Positions 665 to 5,949 of a stretch of DNA of 5,949 nt are shown piece by piece (position 1 is the stretch's first letter; every line of letters starts with the position of its first letter). The DNA comes from a virus. The translations under genes and the position numbers were made by a program. The notes under the pieces were generated by a model, which saw nothing but the letters and a program-made list of their open reading frames with translations, did not search any database and was not told where the DNA came from. The stretch lies in the IMG/VR virus record IMGVR_UViG_3300045988_009401. The stretch is one strand, 5' to 3'.

Positions 665-1558
665 TTATTTTCTCCTTCCTGCACCGCCACCGGCTTTGTT
701 CCTGTTGCCTGTGATGTTGTCGAGTCCGTGGCCGCTTCTTACGTTGTCCATGGCTTTGTTTACGTTTCCCCTTAATTTTTTGCCTTCTTTTCTTCCTGCT
801 CCTACGGCGTCGTTGATCGCGTTGCCTGTTTTACTGCCGATTTTGGACAGTGTTTCCTGCAATCCAAGCGGTGTCATTCCTGTACTGCTTAACATCTGAT
901 TCCAGCTTTGCGCGGCGTTGTACCAGTCACTTTGCGACCAGCTTTCACTTGAATAGGAGTTAGGCACGAAACCGGATGCTCTGCTTACTCCCAGCGCACT
1001 TGACGATGGTGCACCCATGCTTGCGCCTGAGATCGTTCCTGCGCTGCCTCCCGGCGTGCTTGCGCCGCCGTTCTGGAATGCTAATATAGGATTAAGCCCT
1101 GCTTTTTTCATGTCTTCTACGGCCCTCTGATATGCCGTGTTGGACATGTGTTCTTGCCATTCCCTATCTTTCATGGCTTCTGTGCTGTTAAAATTCATTG
1201 CTGCCGCGTTTTCGATGTGGTTATATATTCCCTGCATGATTGCGCCTAGGGTGTTATAACCCATCTGCTCCAGCATAGACCTTTGGTTAAATTGGCTCTG
1301 TCGTGCTCCTTCTGCGCCCTGGTATTGGTATGCACCTTTCAGATACTGCATTACTAGTTCGTCATTGGTTCCGGATTTGCTCATGCTTAGGCTTTGCCCG
1401 CCGCCCTGCTGTGTGCTTCCTCCCTGGCTCTGGCTTTGTCCTACCTGACCCCATGCACCGAATGCGCTTCCCAGTGATCCTATCGCATTTCCTACGGTTC
1501 CGATTGTTCCGGCCACTTTTCCGATTGTTCCCAGTGCTCCTAATAGTGATAGTGCCAT
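665..1558 (-). CDS. VP2: Minor capsid / DNA pilot-like protein (gokushovirus VP2-like), 297 aa, Gly- and Gln-rich.
   Basis: The ORF lies immediately downstream of VP1, which is the canonical gokushovirus VP1-VP2 order. It starts with ATG at 1558..1556. The composition is Gly/Ser/Gln-rich and low in complexity, as expected for a VP2/pilot protein. The stop is TAA at 667..665. Confidence 0.7.
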   Translation of the reverse strand: MALSLLGALGTIGKVAGTIGTVGNAIGSLGSAFGAWGQVGQSQSQGGSTQQGGGQSLSMSKSGTNDELVMQYLKGAYQYQGAEGARQSQFNQRSMLEQMGYNTLGAIMQGIYNHIENAAAMNFNSTEAMKDREWQEHMSNTAYQRAVEDMKKAGLNPILAFQNGGASTPGGSAGTISGASMGAPSSSALGVSRASGFVPNSYSSESWSQSDWYNAAQSWNQMLSSTGMTPLGLQETLSKIGSKTGNAINDAVGAGRKEGKKLRGNVNKAMDNVRSGHGLDNITGNRNKAGGGAGRRK

Positions 1559-1597: not shown

Positions 1598-3262
1598 TTA
1601 CAGCTTATACAGTCCCGGCACGCTATAAAGCGGCATTCTGCGCGTGGTATTGTTTGCTACGCGGATTGCACCGAAAAATTGTGGTTCATTCTGTTCGATC
1701 AGTGTTCTTGCAATCTCTGCTTTTCCTTCTACCATCCATTCTTGCGACAGTGTAGGAACGGTTGCGTAGTTATCAGCGTAGTGCCAGAAGTCCAACGTAC
1801 CTTCTGCGTTGCTTCTCATAAGGCCGCTAACGCGGTTCGGTTTCATCCGGTAGTCTGCCCATGCTTCCTGATAGCCGAATGTCTCTTCGTCGGTCGCATC
1901 ACCTGTGAGCATGATCTCCTTCTTTTTTACCGGCTGTTCGCCTAGATTTGCAAACTGCGGCACGTAATAGTCTAGCCTGTCTTGTCTGCTCCAAAAGCGC
2001 TCAAGACCCTGCTGATAGCTGTGATTGTGTCTCACACATGCAACGCCAATTACGAAACCGTGCTCTTCAAAACTTTTTGTGAAAGAGCTTTCGTTGATAG
2101 GTGTAACGGACATTGCGCCTGTTTCACCGATAGGCGTGTCGTTGTTTGCCTGTTGGCCGCTGGTCTGCACGATCTGGTTGATGTTGACATGATATCTGCC
2201 TCCGCCTAGATACTCAGGCACCTGTACCGTTTTATCCGAAATGACAACGTCCCAAATTGCCTGTACCTGCTCACGATATCTGGAACCGCCCCGTGCCAGC
2301 GCCTCATAGTACTGTTGCACGCTGATGGCCTGTCGTAACTGGTTGACAGTTGTTTTTGCTCCTGTTGCTGTTTTGTCTCCTGTAAGATTTACGTACAGAT
2401 TGCCTTGATTTACTTGTGTTCCGCCTGATGTTGTTGCGCCTGTTACTGTTGCCGCACTGCCGCCGCCGCCGTCAATTGTACCTGTTGCAAATCCACTACC
2501 GTTCATGAAGATTGTGCCTTTTGGGTTCAGTCCGGCTAGATCTCTTAATTCTACCGGGTACAATCCACCTAACTGAATTGTCACCTCTGGTCCACGCTGA
2601 GGATAAGGTAAACAGGATGTGAAATAGTCATGAAACTTGTTCACCGGTAAAAGATTACCGCCTGTTACCGCTTCCTGCAGTTCTTTTTCCATCGTGTCTT
2701 TTTCGCCGGTGCTCATGGCGTATATCACATCTTCATCGTCACTTTTCAGGACTGCAGCGTTGCCTACGTTTTCGTCCCTGAAGAACTCGTTCCAGATTTT
2801 CACATACGCTCTGATAGGCAGTGCGTTGATGCTGAAAGGCTTTTTCACCTTCGTAGGTACGCCCATGTAGTCCAGAATGGACTTTTCATCCGGTGCCGGT
2901 TTTTCATTCGTCCCGTTGATTTTGATTTGCGGTACCGTGTAGTTTTTTGTTGGCATCCACGGCCTTTCTTCCACTTCGCCCATGAAATGCTTGAAATTGT
3001 CCCACAGGATCCGGTTAGGACAGTAGAAATAATAGAAATCGATAAAGCTATCGTCCATTACCGGATATTTGGGAGTCGTCATACGGATAATGGCCTGTGT
3101 GTCAACGCTGAACGTATCGCCCGGTAGGACTTCATCCACGTAAAATGGAATTAGTTTTCCTGCGTCAAATGTGGTCAGGATAATTTGGTCTCGATTGAAT
3201 CGCGTTCGGCTTGCTTTCATCTGTGGAATTTGATTAAAATGCCGCTCGTTATTCCTGTTCAT
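1598..3262 (-). CDS. VP1: Major capsid protein VP1 (Microviridae F-like, gokushovirus type), 554 aa.
   Basis: The N-terminal region reads RFNRDQIILTTFDAGKLIPFYVDEVLPGDTF, matching the conserved gokushovirus VP1 signature (TTFDAG.LIP...DEVLPGDTF). The length is typical. The start is ATG at 3262..3260, preceded by GGAAGGAGA eight nt upstream. The stop is TAA at 1600..1598. Confidence 0.95.
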   Translation of the reverse strand: MNRNNERHFNQIPQMKASRTRFNRDQIILTTFDAGKLIPFYVDEVLPGDTFSVDTQAIIRMTTPKYPVMDDSFIDFYYFYCPNRILWDNFKHFMGEVEERPWMPTKNYTVPQIKINGTNEKPAPDEKSILDYMGVPTKVKKPFSINALPIRAYVKIWNEFFRDENVGNAAVLKSDDEDVIYAMSTGEKDTMEKELQEAVTGGNLLPVNKFHDYFTSCLPYPQRGPEVTIQLGGLYPVELRDLAGLNPKGTIFMNGSGFATGTIDGGGGSAATVTGATTSGGTQVNQGNLYVNLTGDKTATGAKTTVNQLRQAISVQQYYEALARGGSRYREQVQAIWDVVISDKTVQVPEYLGGGRYHVNINQIVQTSGQQANNDTPIGETGAMSVTPINESSFTKSFEEHGFVIGVACVRHNHSYQQGLERFWSRQDRLDYYVPQFANLGEQPVKKKEIMLTGDATDEETFGYQEAWADYRMKPNRVSGLMRSNAEGTLDFWHYADNYATVPTLSQEWMVEGKAEIARTLIEQNEPQFFGAIRVANNTTRRMPLYSVPGLYKL

Positions 3263-3647
3263 TTTTCATGTCTCCTTCCTTCGCTGCTTCTTCCGGTGCT
3301 TTCTCCTGCATTTCCTGCAGTGCCAGTGCGTTTGCCTGCGCTGTTGCGATCATTCTGTGATACTCGTGGATGTTCTGCGGCCATTCCGTGATATCTACCT
3401 CTGTGCCGTCCAGCGCTCCCTGTGAAAGACTCTGCATAAACTGCGGGTCAAATGATGCTTTTCGGACAATGTTTTTAATGTCGCATTCATCTGCATAGCT
3501 CTCGATTTCGCCCTGGATGTCGATGCTTTCAGTCTCCTGAAGGTATTCCTCATTTTCTTTGTTTTTTGCCCATACGTATTGTTTACGCTGGGTTTCGCCT
3601 GATGCAGAAAAGAGGGGCGTGCGCCCCTCTTCATATCTCTTATTCAT
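3249..3647 (-). CDS. VP3-like protein (putative internal scaffolding protein), acidic, about 132 aa from the ATG at 3647. The track's longer form starts at TTG 3707.
   Basis: The ORF lies immediately upstream of VP1 and overlaps it by 14 nt. It has an acidic, Glu-rich C-terminus. The ATG at 3647..3645 has the SD GGGAGGG eight nt upstream and sits 2 nt after the stop of the preceding 79-aa gene. The 152-aa form in the ORF track begins with TTG (3707..3705) and would overlap the upstream gene by 68 nt. I do not recognise any motif in it. Confidence 0.5.
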   Translation of the reverse strand: MNKRYEEGRTPLFSASGETQRKQYVWAKNKENEEYLQETESIDIQGEIESYADECDIKNIVRKASFDPQFMQSLSQGALDGTEVDITEWPQNIHEYHRMIATAQANALALQEMQEKAPEEAAKEGDMKNEQE

Positions 3648-3879
3648 GCGGCTTGCCCTCCCATGCCTTTTCCTTGTCGTTCTGAAATTCGCCGGTTTCG
3701 TCTTCAAACTGTGCCAGCTTGTAACCCACGTAATCGGCTGGGGACTGCCCGATGAACGTGTTCTCGTCCTTCTGCATTACGTTGCACATCCGTGCGAATG
3801 TTTCATTGTTTTTGCTTTCACCTACCCATGCGTAGCACTTCGCTACTTTGTCGTAGATACCATAGTAATTGCTAATCAT
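3640..3879 (-). CDS. Hypothetical acidic protein, 79 aa.
   Basis: ATG at 3879..3877. Lys codons of the upstream gene form an AAAGGA SD 7 nt upstream. The stop is TAA at 3642..3640. The gene is tightly coupled to its neighbours. It has no transmembrane segment and no recognisable motif. Confidence 0.5.
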   Translation of the reverse strand: MISNYYGIYDKVAKCYAWVGESKNNETFARMCNVMQKDENTFIGQSPADYVGYKLAQFEDETGEFQNDKEKAWEGKPHE

Positions 3880-4018
3880 CTTTTTTTCCTTTCTTTTAGA
3901 GCCGAATCCCGCCGCGCATAGGTTTCTGGCTCAAGTTGATGCTTTTGGTTTTCCGCGCGGTTACGTTAAACATGCGCTTATCTTTGTTGCCGTTCATGAC
4001 TTTACGATGTCGTGCCAT
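3872..4018 (-). CDS. Small, highly basic Arg/Lys-rich peptide, 48 aa. It is a candidate DNA-binding/packaging protein, analogous to phiX174 J or gokushovirus ORF8.
   Basis: This ORF is absent from the ORF track because it is shorter than 60 aa. I translated it by hand as MARHRKVMNGNKDKRMFNVTRRKTKSINLSQKPMRGGIRLKKKGKKDD. ATG at 4018..4016 with a strong SD, GAGGAGAGGG, 7 nt upstream. The stop TAG at 3874..3872 overlaps the next gene's start region. It fills the otherwise empty 122-nt gap between two genes. Confidence 0.6.
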
Positions 4019-4229
4019 TATAGTACCCTCTCCTCATCAGCTCTAGCTCGATAGCGTTGGCAAAGTTTTTGCACTGCCAGATCTCATCAATCATTTTCTT
4101 TGCGGTTTCTTTTTCGTTAATTTCTCGCAGGAGCTTGTAATCGTTTTGGATTTCTTTATATTTCTTCTCAAGCAGTTCGGATAAATTTTTTTCGGTCTGG
4201 TCTCTGACATTCCATGGTTTTGCAATCAT
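4002..4229 (-). CDS. Hypothetical protein, 75 aa, predicted helical/coiled-coil, Lys/Glu-rich.
   Basis: ATG at 4229..4227 with SD AAGGAG 9 nt upstream. The stop is TAA at 4004..4002. It is tightly packed against its neighbours. No motif recognised. Confidence 0.5.
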   Translation of the reverse strand: MIAKPWNVRDQTEKNLSELLEKKYKEIQNDYKLLREINEKETAKKMIDEIWQCKNFANAIELELMRRGYYNGTTS

Positions 4230-4235
4230 CTTTGT

Positions 4236-4352
4236 TTACTCCTTTTCGTTCGGCTGGTCGTGTAGGGCATGGTAGATCTCGTCCAGCTTTTCCAGAATCT
4301 GCATCATGATTTTGATAGCCTGTTTGACGTCTTTAATACTGATAAGAGCCAT
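4236..4352 (-). CDS. Small hypothetical peptide, 38 aa (MALISIKDVKQAIKIMMQILEKLDEIYHALHDQPNEKE). Alternatively a 65-aa form from the ATG at 4433, which overlaps the peptidase gene.
   Basis: The ATG at 4352..4350 lies 4 nt after the peptidase stop codon (4359..4357), with SD AAGGGGGT 8 nt upstream. The 65-aa form in the track starts at the ATG at 4433, which sits inside the peptidase coding sequence in another frame. Confidence 0.4.
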   Translation of the reverse strand: MALISIKDVKQAIKIMMQILEKLDEIYHALHDQPNEKE

Positions 4353-4356
4353 TTGC

Positions 4357-4746
4357 TTACACCCCCTTTCTGTATGTTTTGGTGCGCGTGTCGATGTGCA
4401 CCCATGTATTGTATACGATGATGCCGCATCCATTTGGGATGATTTTCTTCAGTTTGTTGGCAATTTCTTTTGCGGTCATGCCATCAACTCGAATGTCTGC
4501 GGCCATTCCCCGCATGTGATATGAGTATTTTGCACCGCCCACCGCTTTATTCCTTGTCGGTGTCCGGTATCCGCTGTTTATGTGTACCGGCTTTCCAACT
4601 TGGTTTCTGAGAATGTCCAGAATCGATACAAGGTAGTCATCTATGAAAACTATCTGAGAACCGTCTCTGCAAGCAAATTCCTTTACTTTGAAGTGCTTTC
4701 CAACGTTTTCGTTTGCGTCTGTGTCCATGATATAGCATTTAATCAT
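4357..4746 (-). CDS. Zinc metallopeptidase of the Peptidase_M15_3 / M15A family (VanY/YcbK-like peptidoglycan peptidase, a putative endolysin). About 129 aa from the ATG at 4746; the track form starts at TTG 4755.
   Basis: The translation contains the family signature SGYRTPTRNKAVGGAKYSYHMRGMAADI ... WVHIDTR. That is an SxHxxGxAxD zinc-binding block plus a C-terminal HxD/H ligand, preceded by FACRDG. The ATG at 4746..4744 follows AAAGGA. The track ORF starts 9 nt upstream at TTG 4755..4753. The stop is TAA at 4359..4357. Confidence 0.85.
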   Translation of the reverse strand: MIKCYIMDTDANENVGKHFKVKEFACRDGSQIVFIDDYLVSILDILRNQVGKPVHINSGYRTPTRNKAVGGAKYSYHMRGMAADIRVDGMTAKEIANKLKKIIPNGCGIIVYNTWVHIDTRTKTYRKGV

Positions 4747-4751
4747 TCTTG

Positions 4752-4970
4752 TCAATTCCTTTTTACTACAGCTACGTCTTCTAAGAATTTTTTTTCTACC
4801 TTGTACAGTCCATCTTCGTCTAGCTCATTTCCTAACTCGAATGCGTATTTTCTGCAGATGATTTTATCACTCTTCCTGTATAGCTTTTCGTAGTTGTACT
4901 TTTTTCCCATCATGTATCCGAAAAAATCGAGTTCTATATAATTTTGTTCGCGCACGTAGACTTTTTTCAT
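4752..4970 (-). CDS. Hypothetical protein, 72 aa, the first gene downstream of the promoter.
   Basis: ATG at 4970..4968 with GGAAGG SD 8 nt upstream, lying 33 nt downstream of the predicted -10. The stop is TGA at 4754..4752, 6 nt before the peptidase ATG. The protein is Lys/Tyr/Glu-rich with no transmembrane segment and no recognised motif. Confidence 0.5.
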   Translation of the reverse strand: MKKVYVREQNYIELDFFGYMMGKKYNYEKLYRKSDKIICRKYAFELGNELDEDGLYKVEKKFLEDVAVVKRN

Positions 4971-5002
4971 GGTGTTTACCTTCCTTTCTTTTCTGTGACT
5001 TA

Positions 5003-5031
5003 ATTATATCACATGTCAATACCTTTTTCAA
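5003..5031 (-). promoter_or_regulatory. Sigma70-type promoter on the minus strand that drives the gene cassette.
   Basis: On the minus strand the -35 is TTGAAA (5031..5026). A 17-nt spacer ending in TGA supplies the TGn of an extended -10. The -10 is a perfect TATAAT (5008..5003). The predicted start lies near 4996, and the first ATG is at 4970 behind a GGAAGG SD. Confidence 0.55.
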
Positions 5032-5076
5032 TCTTTTCGTCTCTTTGTAATAATTTGTAACCTTTCCTAGGACAGG

Positions 5077-5160
5077 AGCGCCGTTAGACTCCCGCCCTCA
5101 GGCGCTCATTTTGATAAGACCGGCAAGGCCGGTCAGACTGTCGGCGCGCTCCGTCAGACT
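5077..5160. repeat. GC-rich cluster of inverted and direct repeats upstream of the promoter, operator-like.
   Basis: An inverted repeat gagcgcc (5077..5083) / ggcgctc (5101..5107) has a 17-bp spacer. A second inverted repeat gaccggc-aag-gccggtc spans 5118..5134. Direct repeats GTCAGACT occur at 5132..5139 and 5153..5160, 21 bp apart, and a related GTTAGACT at 5083..5090. Confidence 0.6.
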
Positions 5161-5196
5161 TTGTCGTCTCCGCTCACCCTACTTTATTTGCCGTTC

Positions 5197-5352
5197 TTTC
5201 AACAGTTTCCACCGACTTTTCAACATTTCAACATTGTTAAACTTTATCACAACAGAGTGTTTCAACATTTCAACAAGTTTTCAACAAATCTTTCAACGTT
5301 TGTTTTTACCTTTTTCTAACGTTTTAACGTTCAAATTTATCTGTTTTCAACT
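5197..5352. repeat. Iteron-like array of about 9 TTTCAAC(A/G) octamers.
   Basis: TTTCAACA occurs at 5197, 5218 and 5226 (a tandem pair), at 5260 and 5268 (a tandem pair), and at 5279. TTTCAACG occurs at 5291, degenerate TTTTAACG and TTCAAA at 5322-5336, and TTTCAACT at 5345. The pattern is not CRISPR-like: the units are 8 bp and there are no spacers. Confidence 0.7.
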
Positions 5353-5397
5353 TTTCCACGTACTCTACTACTACGGCTACAACAAGTTATATAATAT

Positions 5398-5443
5398 TAC
5401 GCGTGCGCGTGTGCGCGCGTCTACGCGTGCGCGTGTGCGCGCG
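5398..5443. repeat. Tandem direct repeat, 2 x 21 nt, of perfectly alternating purine-pyrimidine CG/TG sequence (Z-DNA-prone) separated by tct.
   Basis: acgcgtgcgcgtgtgcgcgcg appears at 5399..5419 and again at 5423..5443. Each copy alternates Pu-Py strictly over 21-22 nt. The AT-rich ttatataatatt lies immediately 5' at 5387..5398. Confidence 0.8.
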
Positions 5444-5481
5444 AATAAAGCCCAGTACCTTACTTGATAGGTACTGGGCTT
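5443..5481 (-). terminator. 13-bp hairpin 11 nt after the VP4 stop. It is a candidate terminator and/or an origin hairpin.
   Basis: aagcccagtacct (5448..5460) and aggtactgggctt (5469..5481) form a perfect stem with an 8-nt loop, tacttgat. On the minus-strand RNA the stem is followed by UAUUCG, which gives a weak U-run, UUUAUU. The loop together with the adjacent base reads ACTTGATA on the + strand. Confidence 0.4.
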
Positions 5482-5492
5482 GGTGACACCGA

Positions 5493-5949
5493 TTAGAGTA
5501 TACCGCTTTTTTTCGTTTGTTTTTTGGTAACGCGTTCTTTTGCTTCTAATTGTGTTTTGTAATCTTGTCCTTCCAACTGCAGTCTTTTCTGCTCTATGGC
5601 TTTTCTCTGTCTGTTTTGCTTGATCCTCCACAGCCTTTCCGGGTTTTCTTTTTCCATCATCTTTTCATAGTATCGCGGTATTTGCGCCTTTTTGCCATTA
5701 GTGCATTGAATGTAGCCTTGTCTCCATATTTCTTCTTTGTGCTCTTGATAGTAAAGATCACCCAGTCCCGGCTTAAGTGACATACACGCGAACGGTTTTT
5801 GTTGACCTAGATCATAATATGCATTTGCTTTCTTTCCGTCAATTTCATACATTTTTTTTGTAACATACCCTGCAACATATCTATATGTTTCAGGTGTTGC
5901 TTGTGCGATCTGAATTTGACCGTTTCCCCATAGCTTTTCTAGCCATTCA
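5493..5949 (-). CDS. VP4: Replication initiator VP4, C-terminal part. Positions 5851..5949 duplicate 1..99, so this is the same gene as feature 1..569 read through the circular junction. The stop codon TAA is at 5495..5493.
   Basis: The 119-aa ORF 5493..5852 of the track extends in frame, with no stop, through the 99-bp terminal redundancy. It contains KPFACMSLKPGLG, typical of Microviridae Rep C-termini. The ATG at 5852 that the track used as a start is an internal Met. Confidence 0.88.
   Translation of the reverse strand, partial: EWLEKLWGNGQIQIAQATPETYRYVAGYVTKKMYEIDGKKANAYYDLGQQKPFACMSLKPGLGDLYYQEHKEEIWRQGYIQCTNGKKAQIPRYYEKMMEKENPERLWRIKQNRQRKAIEQKRLQLEGQDYKTQLEAKERVTKKQTKKSGIL
5851..5949. 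repeat. 99-bp terminal redundancy, an exact copy of 1..99. It marks the circular genome closure.
   Basis: I compared the two ends base by base: 5851..5949 is identical to 1..99. Confidence 0.97.

Follow-up and report, generated by a model that had tools for sequence, protein, structure and literature searches.

A short basic open reading frame of a 5.85-kb gut phage is very probably the VP8/ORF8 gene of a gokushovirus

Which protein, if any, is encoded by the short, strongly basic open reading frame that is located between a 75-aa ORF and the VP5 gene of this viral genome? The window, i.e., the whole stretch of 5,949 nucleotides that was analysed, carries all its genes on the minus strand. 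The genome is circular and comprises 5850 nt: positions 1-99 are identical (100%, 99 nt) to positions 5851-5949, a terminal redundancy which originated in the assembly. The gokushovirus identity is evident from VP1 (Phage_F, 7.7e-135), VP3 (Chlamy_scaf), and VP5 (Phage_ORF5); VP2 and VP4 were recognized by PHROGs. A preliminary description had ascribed the short frame to a DNA-binding protein of the J/ORF8 type of ssDNA microviruses. The core of this reading is supported by homology; phiX174 J is to be seen as an analogue. As judged from the sequence, positions 3896-4018 of the minus strand very probably represent VP8/ORF8 of a gokushovirus from the gut whose circular genome has about 5850 nt. 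The genes and open reading frames of the window are:

665-1558, minus strand: VP2, PHROG match
1598-3262, minus strand: VP1, Phage_F 7.7e-135
3249-3707, minus strand: VP3, Chlamy_scaf
3640-3879, minus strand: VP5, directly downstream of VP8; PF20577 Phage_ORF5 (E=7.8e-12), phrog_1670 (E=1.7e-18)
3896-4018, minus strand: VP8/ORF8 CDS, 40 codons and the TAA stop (3898-3896); based on ORF listing, translation, full-length match to phrog_10695, and conservation
4002-4229, minus strand: 75-aa ORF, no convincing family match; homologues in 74 relatives with a mean identity of 65%
4236-4433, minus strand: 65-aa ORF, no convincing family match; shares 77 nt with the 3' end of the M15 gene
4357-4755, minus strand: Peptidase_M15_3/endolysin-like, PF08291 (6.2e-24), phrog_894 (7.8e-45)
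4752-4970, minus strand: 72-aa ORF, no convincing family match
5493-5949 continuing into 100 to ~690, minus strand: VP4 replication protein, spans the window ends

The M15 gene belongs to an accessory block which is missing from the classical gokushoviruses of 4.4-4.6 kb. VP4 is absent from the ORF lists because the gene crosses the ends of the window. The VP8 locus had been taken for the sole gap in the string of genes. This does not hold, as the 522 nt at 4971-5492, which separate the VP4 stop from the 72-aa ORF, are also without a family-matching ORF and contain no minus-strand ORF of at least 60 aa.

The ORF list and the translation agree on a product of 40 aa, MARHRKVMNGNKDKRMFNVTARKTKSINLSQKPMRGGIRL, which starts with the ATG at 4018. 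When the minus strand is read from 4018 down to 3860 this sequence is followed by a stop, KKGKKDD, and a second stop. The basic ORF had been placed at 3872-4018 with a product of 48 aa. Its start was correct; its end was not, since the TAA at 3898-3896 had been read through and eight non-existent residues had been added. Lysine and arginine account for 12 of the 40 residues (30%), half of them lysine, next to a single aspartate. The earlier figure of about 40% was too high, and residue 21, read as Arg, is Ala. The expectation of a pI above 11 was borne out: the computed value of 12.0 is the top of the Biopython range, and the net charge is approximately +10.6. With a GRAVY of -1.04 the protein, a peptide of 4.67 kDa, is devoid of a hydrophobic segment. 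A small lysis or membrane peptide like phiX174 E has next to no probability at this locus: such proteins do occur in microviruses, yet a peptide with a net charge of +11, this GRAVY, and no hydrophobic segment is hardly of that kind, and the genome possesses its own M15 peptidase/endolysin at 4357-4755. The VP8 product can be divided into two parts:

3923-4018, minus strand: residues 1-32, a basic, variable N-terminal stretch (MARHRKVMNGNKDKRM) followed by the midsection FNVTARKTKSINLSQK
3899-3922, minus strand: residues 33-40, the C-terminal motif PMRGGIRL, family signature and putative capsid anchor; invariant in nearly all relatives

Ten of the 12 basic residues are located in residues 1-32. 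The midsection FNVTARKTKSINLSQK is almost invariant within the clade.

By itself the ORF is no more than what chance provides; it is the conservation that makes it real. The window has 62 ORFs of at least 30 aa, and 20% of genome shuffles generate an ATG-initiated ORF with a length of 40 aa or more and a Lys+Arg content of 30% or more. Further, most close GenBank records leave the locus unannotated: in 16 of the 18 closest ones nothing is annotated under the VP8 match; of the remaining two, MG945430 has no feature in contact with the match apart from the adjacent 75-aa ORF. All this would be compatible with a chance open frame between the 75-aa ORF and VP5 that yields no protein. Against it stand the strong Shine-Dalgarno sequence (SD) at an ideal spacing and the homology to a protein seen in solved virions, both presented below, and above all the comparison with relatives. 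For this purpose 80 IMG/VR contigs were chosen by VP1 alone (72-88% identity), and all their stop-to-stop frames were searched with the 40-aa peptide. The ORF is present on the VP1 strand in 79 of the 80, the exception being a partial contig of 4241 nt. Intact copies with a called start are 39-42 aa long, all but three of them 39 or 40 aa, and they end right after PMRGGIR[LM]. Artefacts account for two shorter calls, one cut at the contig end (L031), the other due to a GTG start (L063). Insertions and deletions comprise whole codons only.

The pattern of substitutions is that of a coding sequence. Among 60 distinct 123-nt alleles the per-site entropy is 0.18, 0.20, and 0.78 at codon positions 1, 2, and 3, respectively, i.e., variation is concentrated at third positions. 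Measured against the window, pN/pS is 0.17 in the VP8 frame. Of the five other frames, four have values of 1.3-3.0; the fifth, the antisense frame which shares the wobble positions, has 0.38, as expected. Residues 17-40 are 97.5% identical across the relatives, residues 1-16 76.6%. VP1, VP3, and VP5 have mean identities of 74-78% (VP1, 75.8%), i.e., residues 17-40 of VP8 are better conserved than VP1, VP3, VP5, or the 75-aa ORF. Since the synonymous sites of VP8 vary freely, it is the protein that is constrained rather than an element of the nucleic acid. No family was returned when the window was scanned with Rfam over its full length, so no known RNA element resides at the VP8 locus. Thus, the VP8 ORF is genuine and conserved, its protein is subject to purifying selection, and the probability of a mere chance frame is minute, this reading being effectively refuted by the third-position bias and the pN/pS values.

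An antisense ORF of 61 aa (3869-4054, plus strand) was considered and rejected as non-coding based on its pN/pS of 1.3; that it remains open is mostly due to the scarcity of Leu and Ser codons in VP8. A protein of 49 aa (P0092) matches VP8 over 26 residues and then continues with a divergent, longer C-terminus, most likely due to a frameshift or sequencing error in one metagenomic contig.

To which family does the protein belong? Single-sequence similarity is weak: phmmer against the PDB gave a marginal match to the solved phiEC6098 VP8 (E=0.036). The assignment rests on profiles and the C-terminal motif. Residues 2-40 match positions 1-39 of phrog_10695, a profile of 39 positions, with E=4e-10. 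The classical ORF8/VP8 genes were translated from their GenBank records and scanned against the same profile; it is also matched by ORF8 of Chp2 (5.8e-19), the DNA-binding protein of phiMH2K (8e-8), and VP8 of phiEC6098 (1.6e-10). A profile built from 15 clade sequences and compared with all of the PDB had a single match, chain E of 8DES, in which positions 1-40 align to 1-39 (E=3e-4). Alignment of this clade profile with an alignment of four classical VP8s by hhalign yielded a probability of 96.4% and E=1.4e-9 over 36 columns. VP8 of SpV4 matched neither phrog_10695 nor the clade profile, for which it is too divergent, and is linked solely by an alignment of the C-terminal motif. The capsid partner is homologous as well, the VP1 of the window matching the VP1s of the solved virions (8DES_A, 5e-104; 9CGM_A, 3e-98).

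A tblastn search with the ORF retrieved 980 phage records, of which 733 cover at least 80% of the query; all organism names listed are microviruses, and some of the homologues, at 50-64% identity, are annotated as 'DNA binding protein'. Scans of the 40-aa protein against Pfam (E<=1) and NCBIfam gave no match, and there is no curated model for the family. The protein-database search returned only relatives of at least 60% identity, none with an informative name. In length and basicity the product (40 aa, 30% Lys+Arg) conforms to the known VP8s (38-44 aa, 32-44% Lys+Arg), it is encoded on the same minus strand as VP1-VP5, and it ends exactly at the MRGGIR[L/F] motif. By sequence it does not belong to the phiX174-type J proteins, as neither a Pfam match at E<=1 nor a J chain in the PDB (sequence and profile searches, E<=10) was found. 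The protein is an ordinary member of the already known gokushovirus VP8/ORF8 family, which is described as a core gokushovirus gene for a putative DNA-binding protein (PMC7062461).

The closest structurally characterized relative is VP8 of the Enterogokushovirus phiEC6098 (8DES chain E, 'Putative DNA binding protein'). It has 39 aa compared to 40 aa here and can be aligned end to end with the VP8 of the window; both proteins begin with MAR and end with MRGGIRL, the last seven residues being identical. They share the same PHROG and a homologous capsid partner. The differences are also clear. VP8 of phiEC6098 is more basic with 17 Lys+Arg (44%, mostly Arg) vs 12 (30%) and has the midsection FRKYAKTHKRNFKARS in place of the clade-invariant polar FNVTARKTKSINLSQKP. 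Its gene follows VP2 (PMC7062461) and is not positioned between accessory genes and VP5 as here, and the genome is about 4.5 kb vs 5.85 kb. Bajarodmic virus 100 has the order VP2-VP8-...-VP4 like phiEC6098 and unlike the window. Chp2 ORF8 is a small basic protein of 44 (or 40) aa which ends with IMRGGIRF and so differs in the last seven residues of the motif only at the final one; it is very Arg-rich (18 Arg; 43% Lys+Arg vs 30%), and the gene order is VP3-ORF8-ORF4 (VP4), unlike that of the window. The Bdellovibrio phage phiMH2K has a basic 38-aa protein which ends with AMRGGIRL and is annotated as 'putative DNA binding protein; similar to phiX174 J'; again the gene order, VP5-ORF8-VP4, is different. 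VP8 of SpV4 (virion 9CGM) is a basic protein of 38 aa with the C-terminus RGGRRF that can be aligned with other VP8s, yet shares with the VP8 of the window only the RGG.R[hydrophobic] C-terminus. The preliminary description had proposed conservation among gokushoviruses as a check and its absence as a refutation. The refutation did not come about: 79 of 80 relatives keep the ORF in frame, and the gene is conserved across the subfamily; an equivalent position is kept only within the clade.

What is known from virions gives an indication of how such a protein may operate. Only for SpV4 and phiEC6098 is VP8 known to be part of the virion, attached to the inside of VP1 and touching the ssDNA; cryo-EM places it on the capsid interior of both (PMC11281519). 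In SpV4, residues 9-38 line the interior, the N-terminus leads into the DNA, and the last residue is inserted in a hydrophobic pocket of VP1 close to the 2-fold axis (PMC11281519). The C-terminus of phiEC6098 VP8 is likewise buried in a hydrophobic VP1 pocket, and order is confined to its last 10 residues (PMC11281519). The last four residues of VP8 and J take up one common site throughout the Microviridae, and these are the only ones which are structurally conserved (PMC11281519). The analogue of VP8 is considered to be phiX174 J, a protein that goes into the procapsid along with the ssDNA (PMC11281519). The J proteins of phiX174, G4, and alpha3 (Bullavirinae) presumably have the same job as small basic peptides packaged with ssDNA, and their C-terminus and that of VP8 lie in the same hydrophobic part of the coat protein (PMC11281519). 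They have no detectable sequence similarity to the VP8 of the window; the resemblance extends to function and position only, and they are functional analogues and not demonstrated homologues.

From the homology of both VP8 and VP1, we expect the VP8 of the window to work like that of phiEC6098, with its C-terminus anchored in VP1 and the basic N-terminus facing the DNA. Unless attached to the capsid, such a 40-residue peptide would be largely disordered. It likely binds DNA in the interior of the virion, where it is attached to VP1. Its place in the particle, its copy number, its binding to DNA, and its part in packaging are inferred from the solved virions of SpV4 and phiEC6098 and from phiX174 J. 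In this scheme the 40-residue basic protein would be made in large amounts owing to the strongest SD of 10 gene starts, and would enter the procapsid with the ssDNA genome. The tail PMRGGIRL, a putative capsid anchor, would be fixed in a hydrophobic pocket at the inner face of VP1, probably with one copy per VP1 and, on this assumed copy number, 60 per virion. Residues 1-32 are presumably the DNA-facing and capsid-lining part, as modelled on SpV4 VP8 (PMC11281519); the Lys/Arg-rich N-terminal portion would touch the packaged DNA and partly neutralize its charge. At the assumed 60 copies, a net charge of +11 each would amount to about 660 positive charges vs about 5850 phosphates, or about 11%.

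Could VP8 instead act outside the virion, as a non-packaged basic DNA- or RNA-binding regulator, e.g., of replication or of a packaging switch? Basic peptides bind nucleic acids without sequence specificity, and a GenBank record labels Chp2 ORF8 a 'nonstructural protein'. Yet the invariant MRGGIRL corresponds to the phiEC6098 VP8 segment which is ordered in the capsid (PMC11281519), and the switch role has been assigned to VP5, which adjoins VP8 (PMC11281519, PMC7062461). We consider such a regulator highly improbable compared with a component of the virion interior.

The flanks of the VP8 gene deserve a separate consideration:

4026-4035, minus strand: SD GAGGAGAGGG of VP8, 7 nt (tactata) upstream of the ATG
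4002-4018, minus strand: 17-nt overlap of the 3' end of the upstream 75-aa ORF with the VP8 start, from the ORF coordinates
3880-3895, minus strand: 16-nt spacer aagaaaggaaaaaaag from the VP8 stop to the VP5 ATG; carries the VP5 SD GAAAGGA at 3893-3887

The SD with its 7-nt spacing had been correctly described: GAGGAGAGGG at 4035-4026 is followed by tactata and the ATG. It is situated within the last codons of the upstream 75-aa ORF (...MRRG...), and relatives have a purine-rich AGAAGGGAG/GGGGG element at this place. If the host has a canonical anti-SD, as assumed here, the duplex has -12.4 kcal/mol and is the strongest of 10 gene starts, the next one reaching -9.2. The claim of the strongest SD in the genome is borne out among these starts; over the whole minus strand, only two other places attain this value. 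The strongest SD among the tested starts fits a protein which is needed in capsid-like amounts.

On the upstream side, the homologue match of the 75-aa ORF extends 7-19 nt beyond the VP8 start in 70 of 74 relatives. On the downstream side, VP5 matches were obtained in 78 relatives, and in 70 of these VP5 starts 14-21 nt after the VP8 stop. A stop that overlaps the SD and start of the next gene, as had been reported, is an artefact of the read-through; there is no ATGA overlap, and the case for translational coupling that was built on it lapses with the misread stop. A 48-aa read-through product was likewise discarded, since the spacer of 14-21 nt across relatives is not a multiple of 3, and there is no conserved extension. 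In two relatives the VP8 stop is followed by unrelated sequence, cgttactcgcaacagc... in L010 (from ~3255 on) and cactcctcacaacagc... in L012 (from ~1227 on), without a VP5 SD or start; this suggests an insertion between VP8 and VP5.

Judging by the arrangement of the reading frames, translation of VP8 may nevertheless be coupled on both sides, to the 75-aa ORF by the overlap and to VP5 by the spacing. One might go further and regard the VP8 ORF mainly as a translated leader that controls VP5 by coupling, with a peptide lacking a structural role. The VP8 stop is located 16 nt ahead of the VP5 ATG and abuts the VP5 SD, the spacing of 14-21 nt is conserved, and 17 nt at the VP8 start are shared with the upstream ORF. 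A leader of this kind would not call for an amino acid identity of 97.5% at residues 17-40 despite freely varying synonymous sites. Moreover, the homologous gene is not adjacent to VP5 in Chp2, bajarodmic virus 100, and phiEC6098 (PMC7062461), and the homologues are structural components (PMC11281519). A mere leader is thus very unlikely; coupling to VP5 may exist in addition to the structural role of VP8.

A variant of the structural reading concerns the midsection. In it, FNVTARKTKSINLSQKP would touch the inside of VP1 over an extended length and in a sequence-specific way, similar to SpV4 but not to phiEC6098, and VP8 would be more of a lining or assembly factor than a charge neutralizer; its embedding between the 75-aa ORF and VP5 might set the stoichiometry by coupling. 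This variant is put forward because the genome is about 30% larger than that of phiEC6098 with a homologous VP1, yet its VP8 is markedly less basic (12 vs 17 Lys+Arg) and has an almost invariant polar midsection. We regard it as rather unlikely.

The main value of identifying VP8 is in annotation: the gene map of a 5.85-kb gut phage is completed. Database proteins which are 80-98% identical to VP8 are unnamed or called 'hypothetical protein', and phrog_10695 carries the label 'unknown function'. The gene is often missed by annotators because it is so short and falls under common ORF length cut-offs. An ORF of about 40 aa that ends with PMRGGIRL is a simple VP8 signature for metagenomic microviruses. 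Our understanding of how gokushoviruses work is left unchanged by this identification.

Several further observations concern the remainder of the genome. The VP4 start is likely a GTG (VSCYKPL...) beside the VP2 stop; a naive joining of the window ends duplicates 'EWLEKLWGNGQIQIAQATPETYRYVAGYVTKK' in VP4. In an alternative frame inside VP3 (3395-3634, minus strand) there is an ORF of 79 aa with 27% Lys+Arg (MKRGARPSFLHQ...) which is probably spurious. The segment 4971-5492 might serve as an origin or in regulation. Between about 5240 and 5492 the nucleotide identity is about 90% in more than 70 of the 80 relatives, above that of the coding genes. Directly after the VP4 stop (5495-5493), an 11-bp hairpin, AGCCCAGTACC/GGTACTGGGCT, is located at 5480-5443 of the minus strand. 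Its loop comprises 10 nt, and TTTATT comes after the second arm; the hairpin looks like a terminator and was missed by the automatic scan, the loop being longer than 8 nt. Positions 5398-5443 contain two exact tandem copies of a 22-nt unit, TACGCGTGCGCGTGTGCGCGCG (plus strand), 24 nt from start to start. The unit consists nearly entirely of alternating purines and pyrimidines, resembles Z-DNA-prone sequence, and is conserved in many relatives. At about 5200-5350 of the minus strand at least 8 copies of (T)GTTGAAA are present with irregular spacing; they are iteron-like and partly conserved in relatives. The best sigma-70-like site of the window is found at 5031-5003 of the minus strand, TTGAAA-17 nt-TATAAT with an upstream TG, in which 11 of the 12 positions match. 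The site is positioned 33 nt upstream of the start of the 72-aa ORF and could drive the whole string, i.e., the 72-aa ORF, the M15 peptidase, VP8, VP5, VP3, VP1, and VP2.
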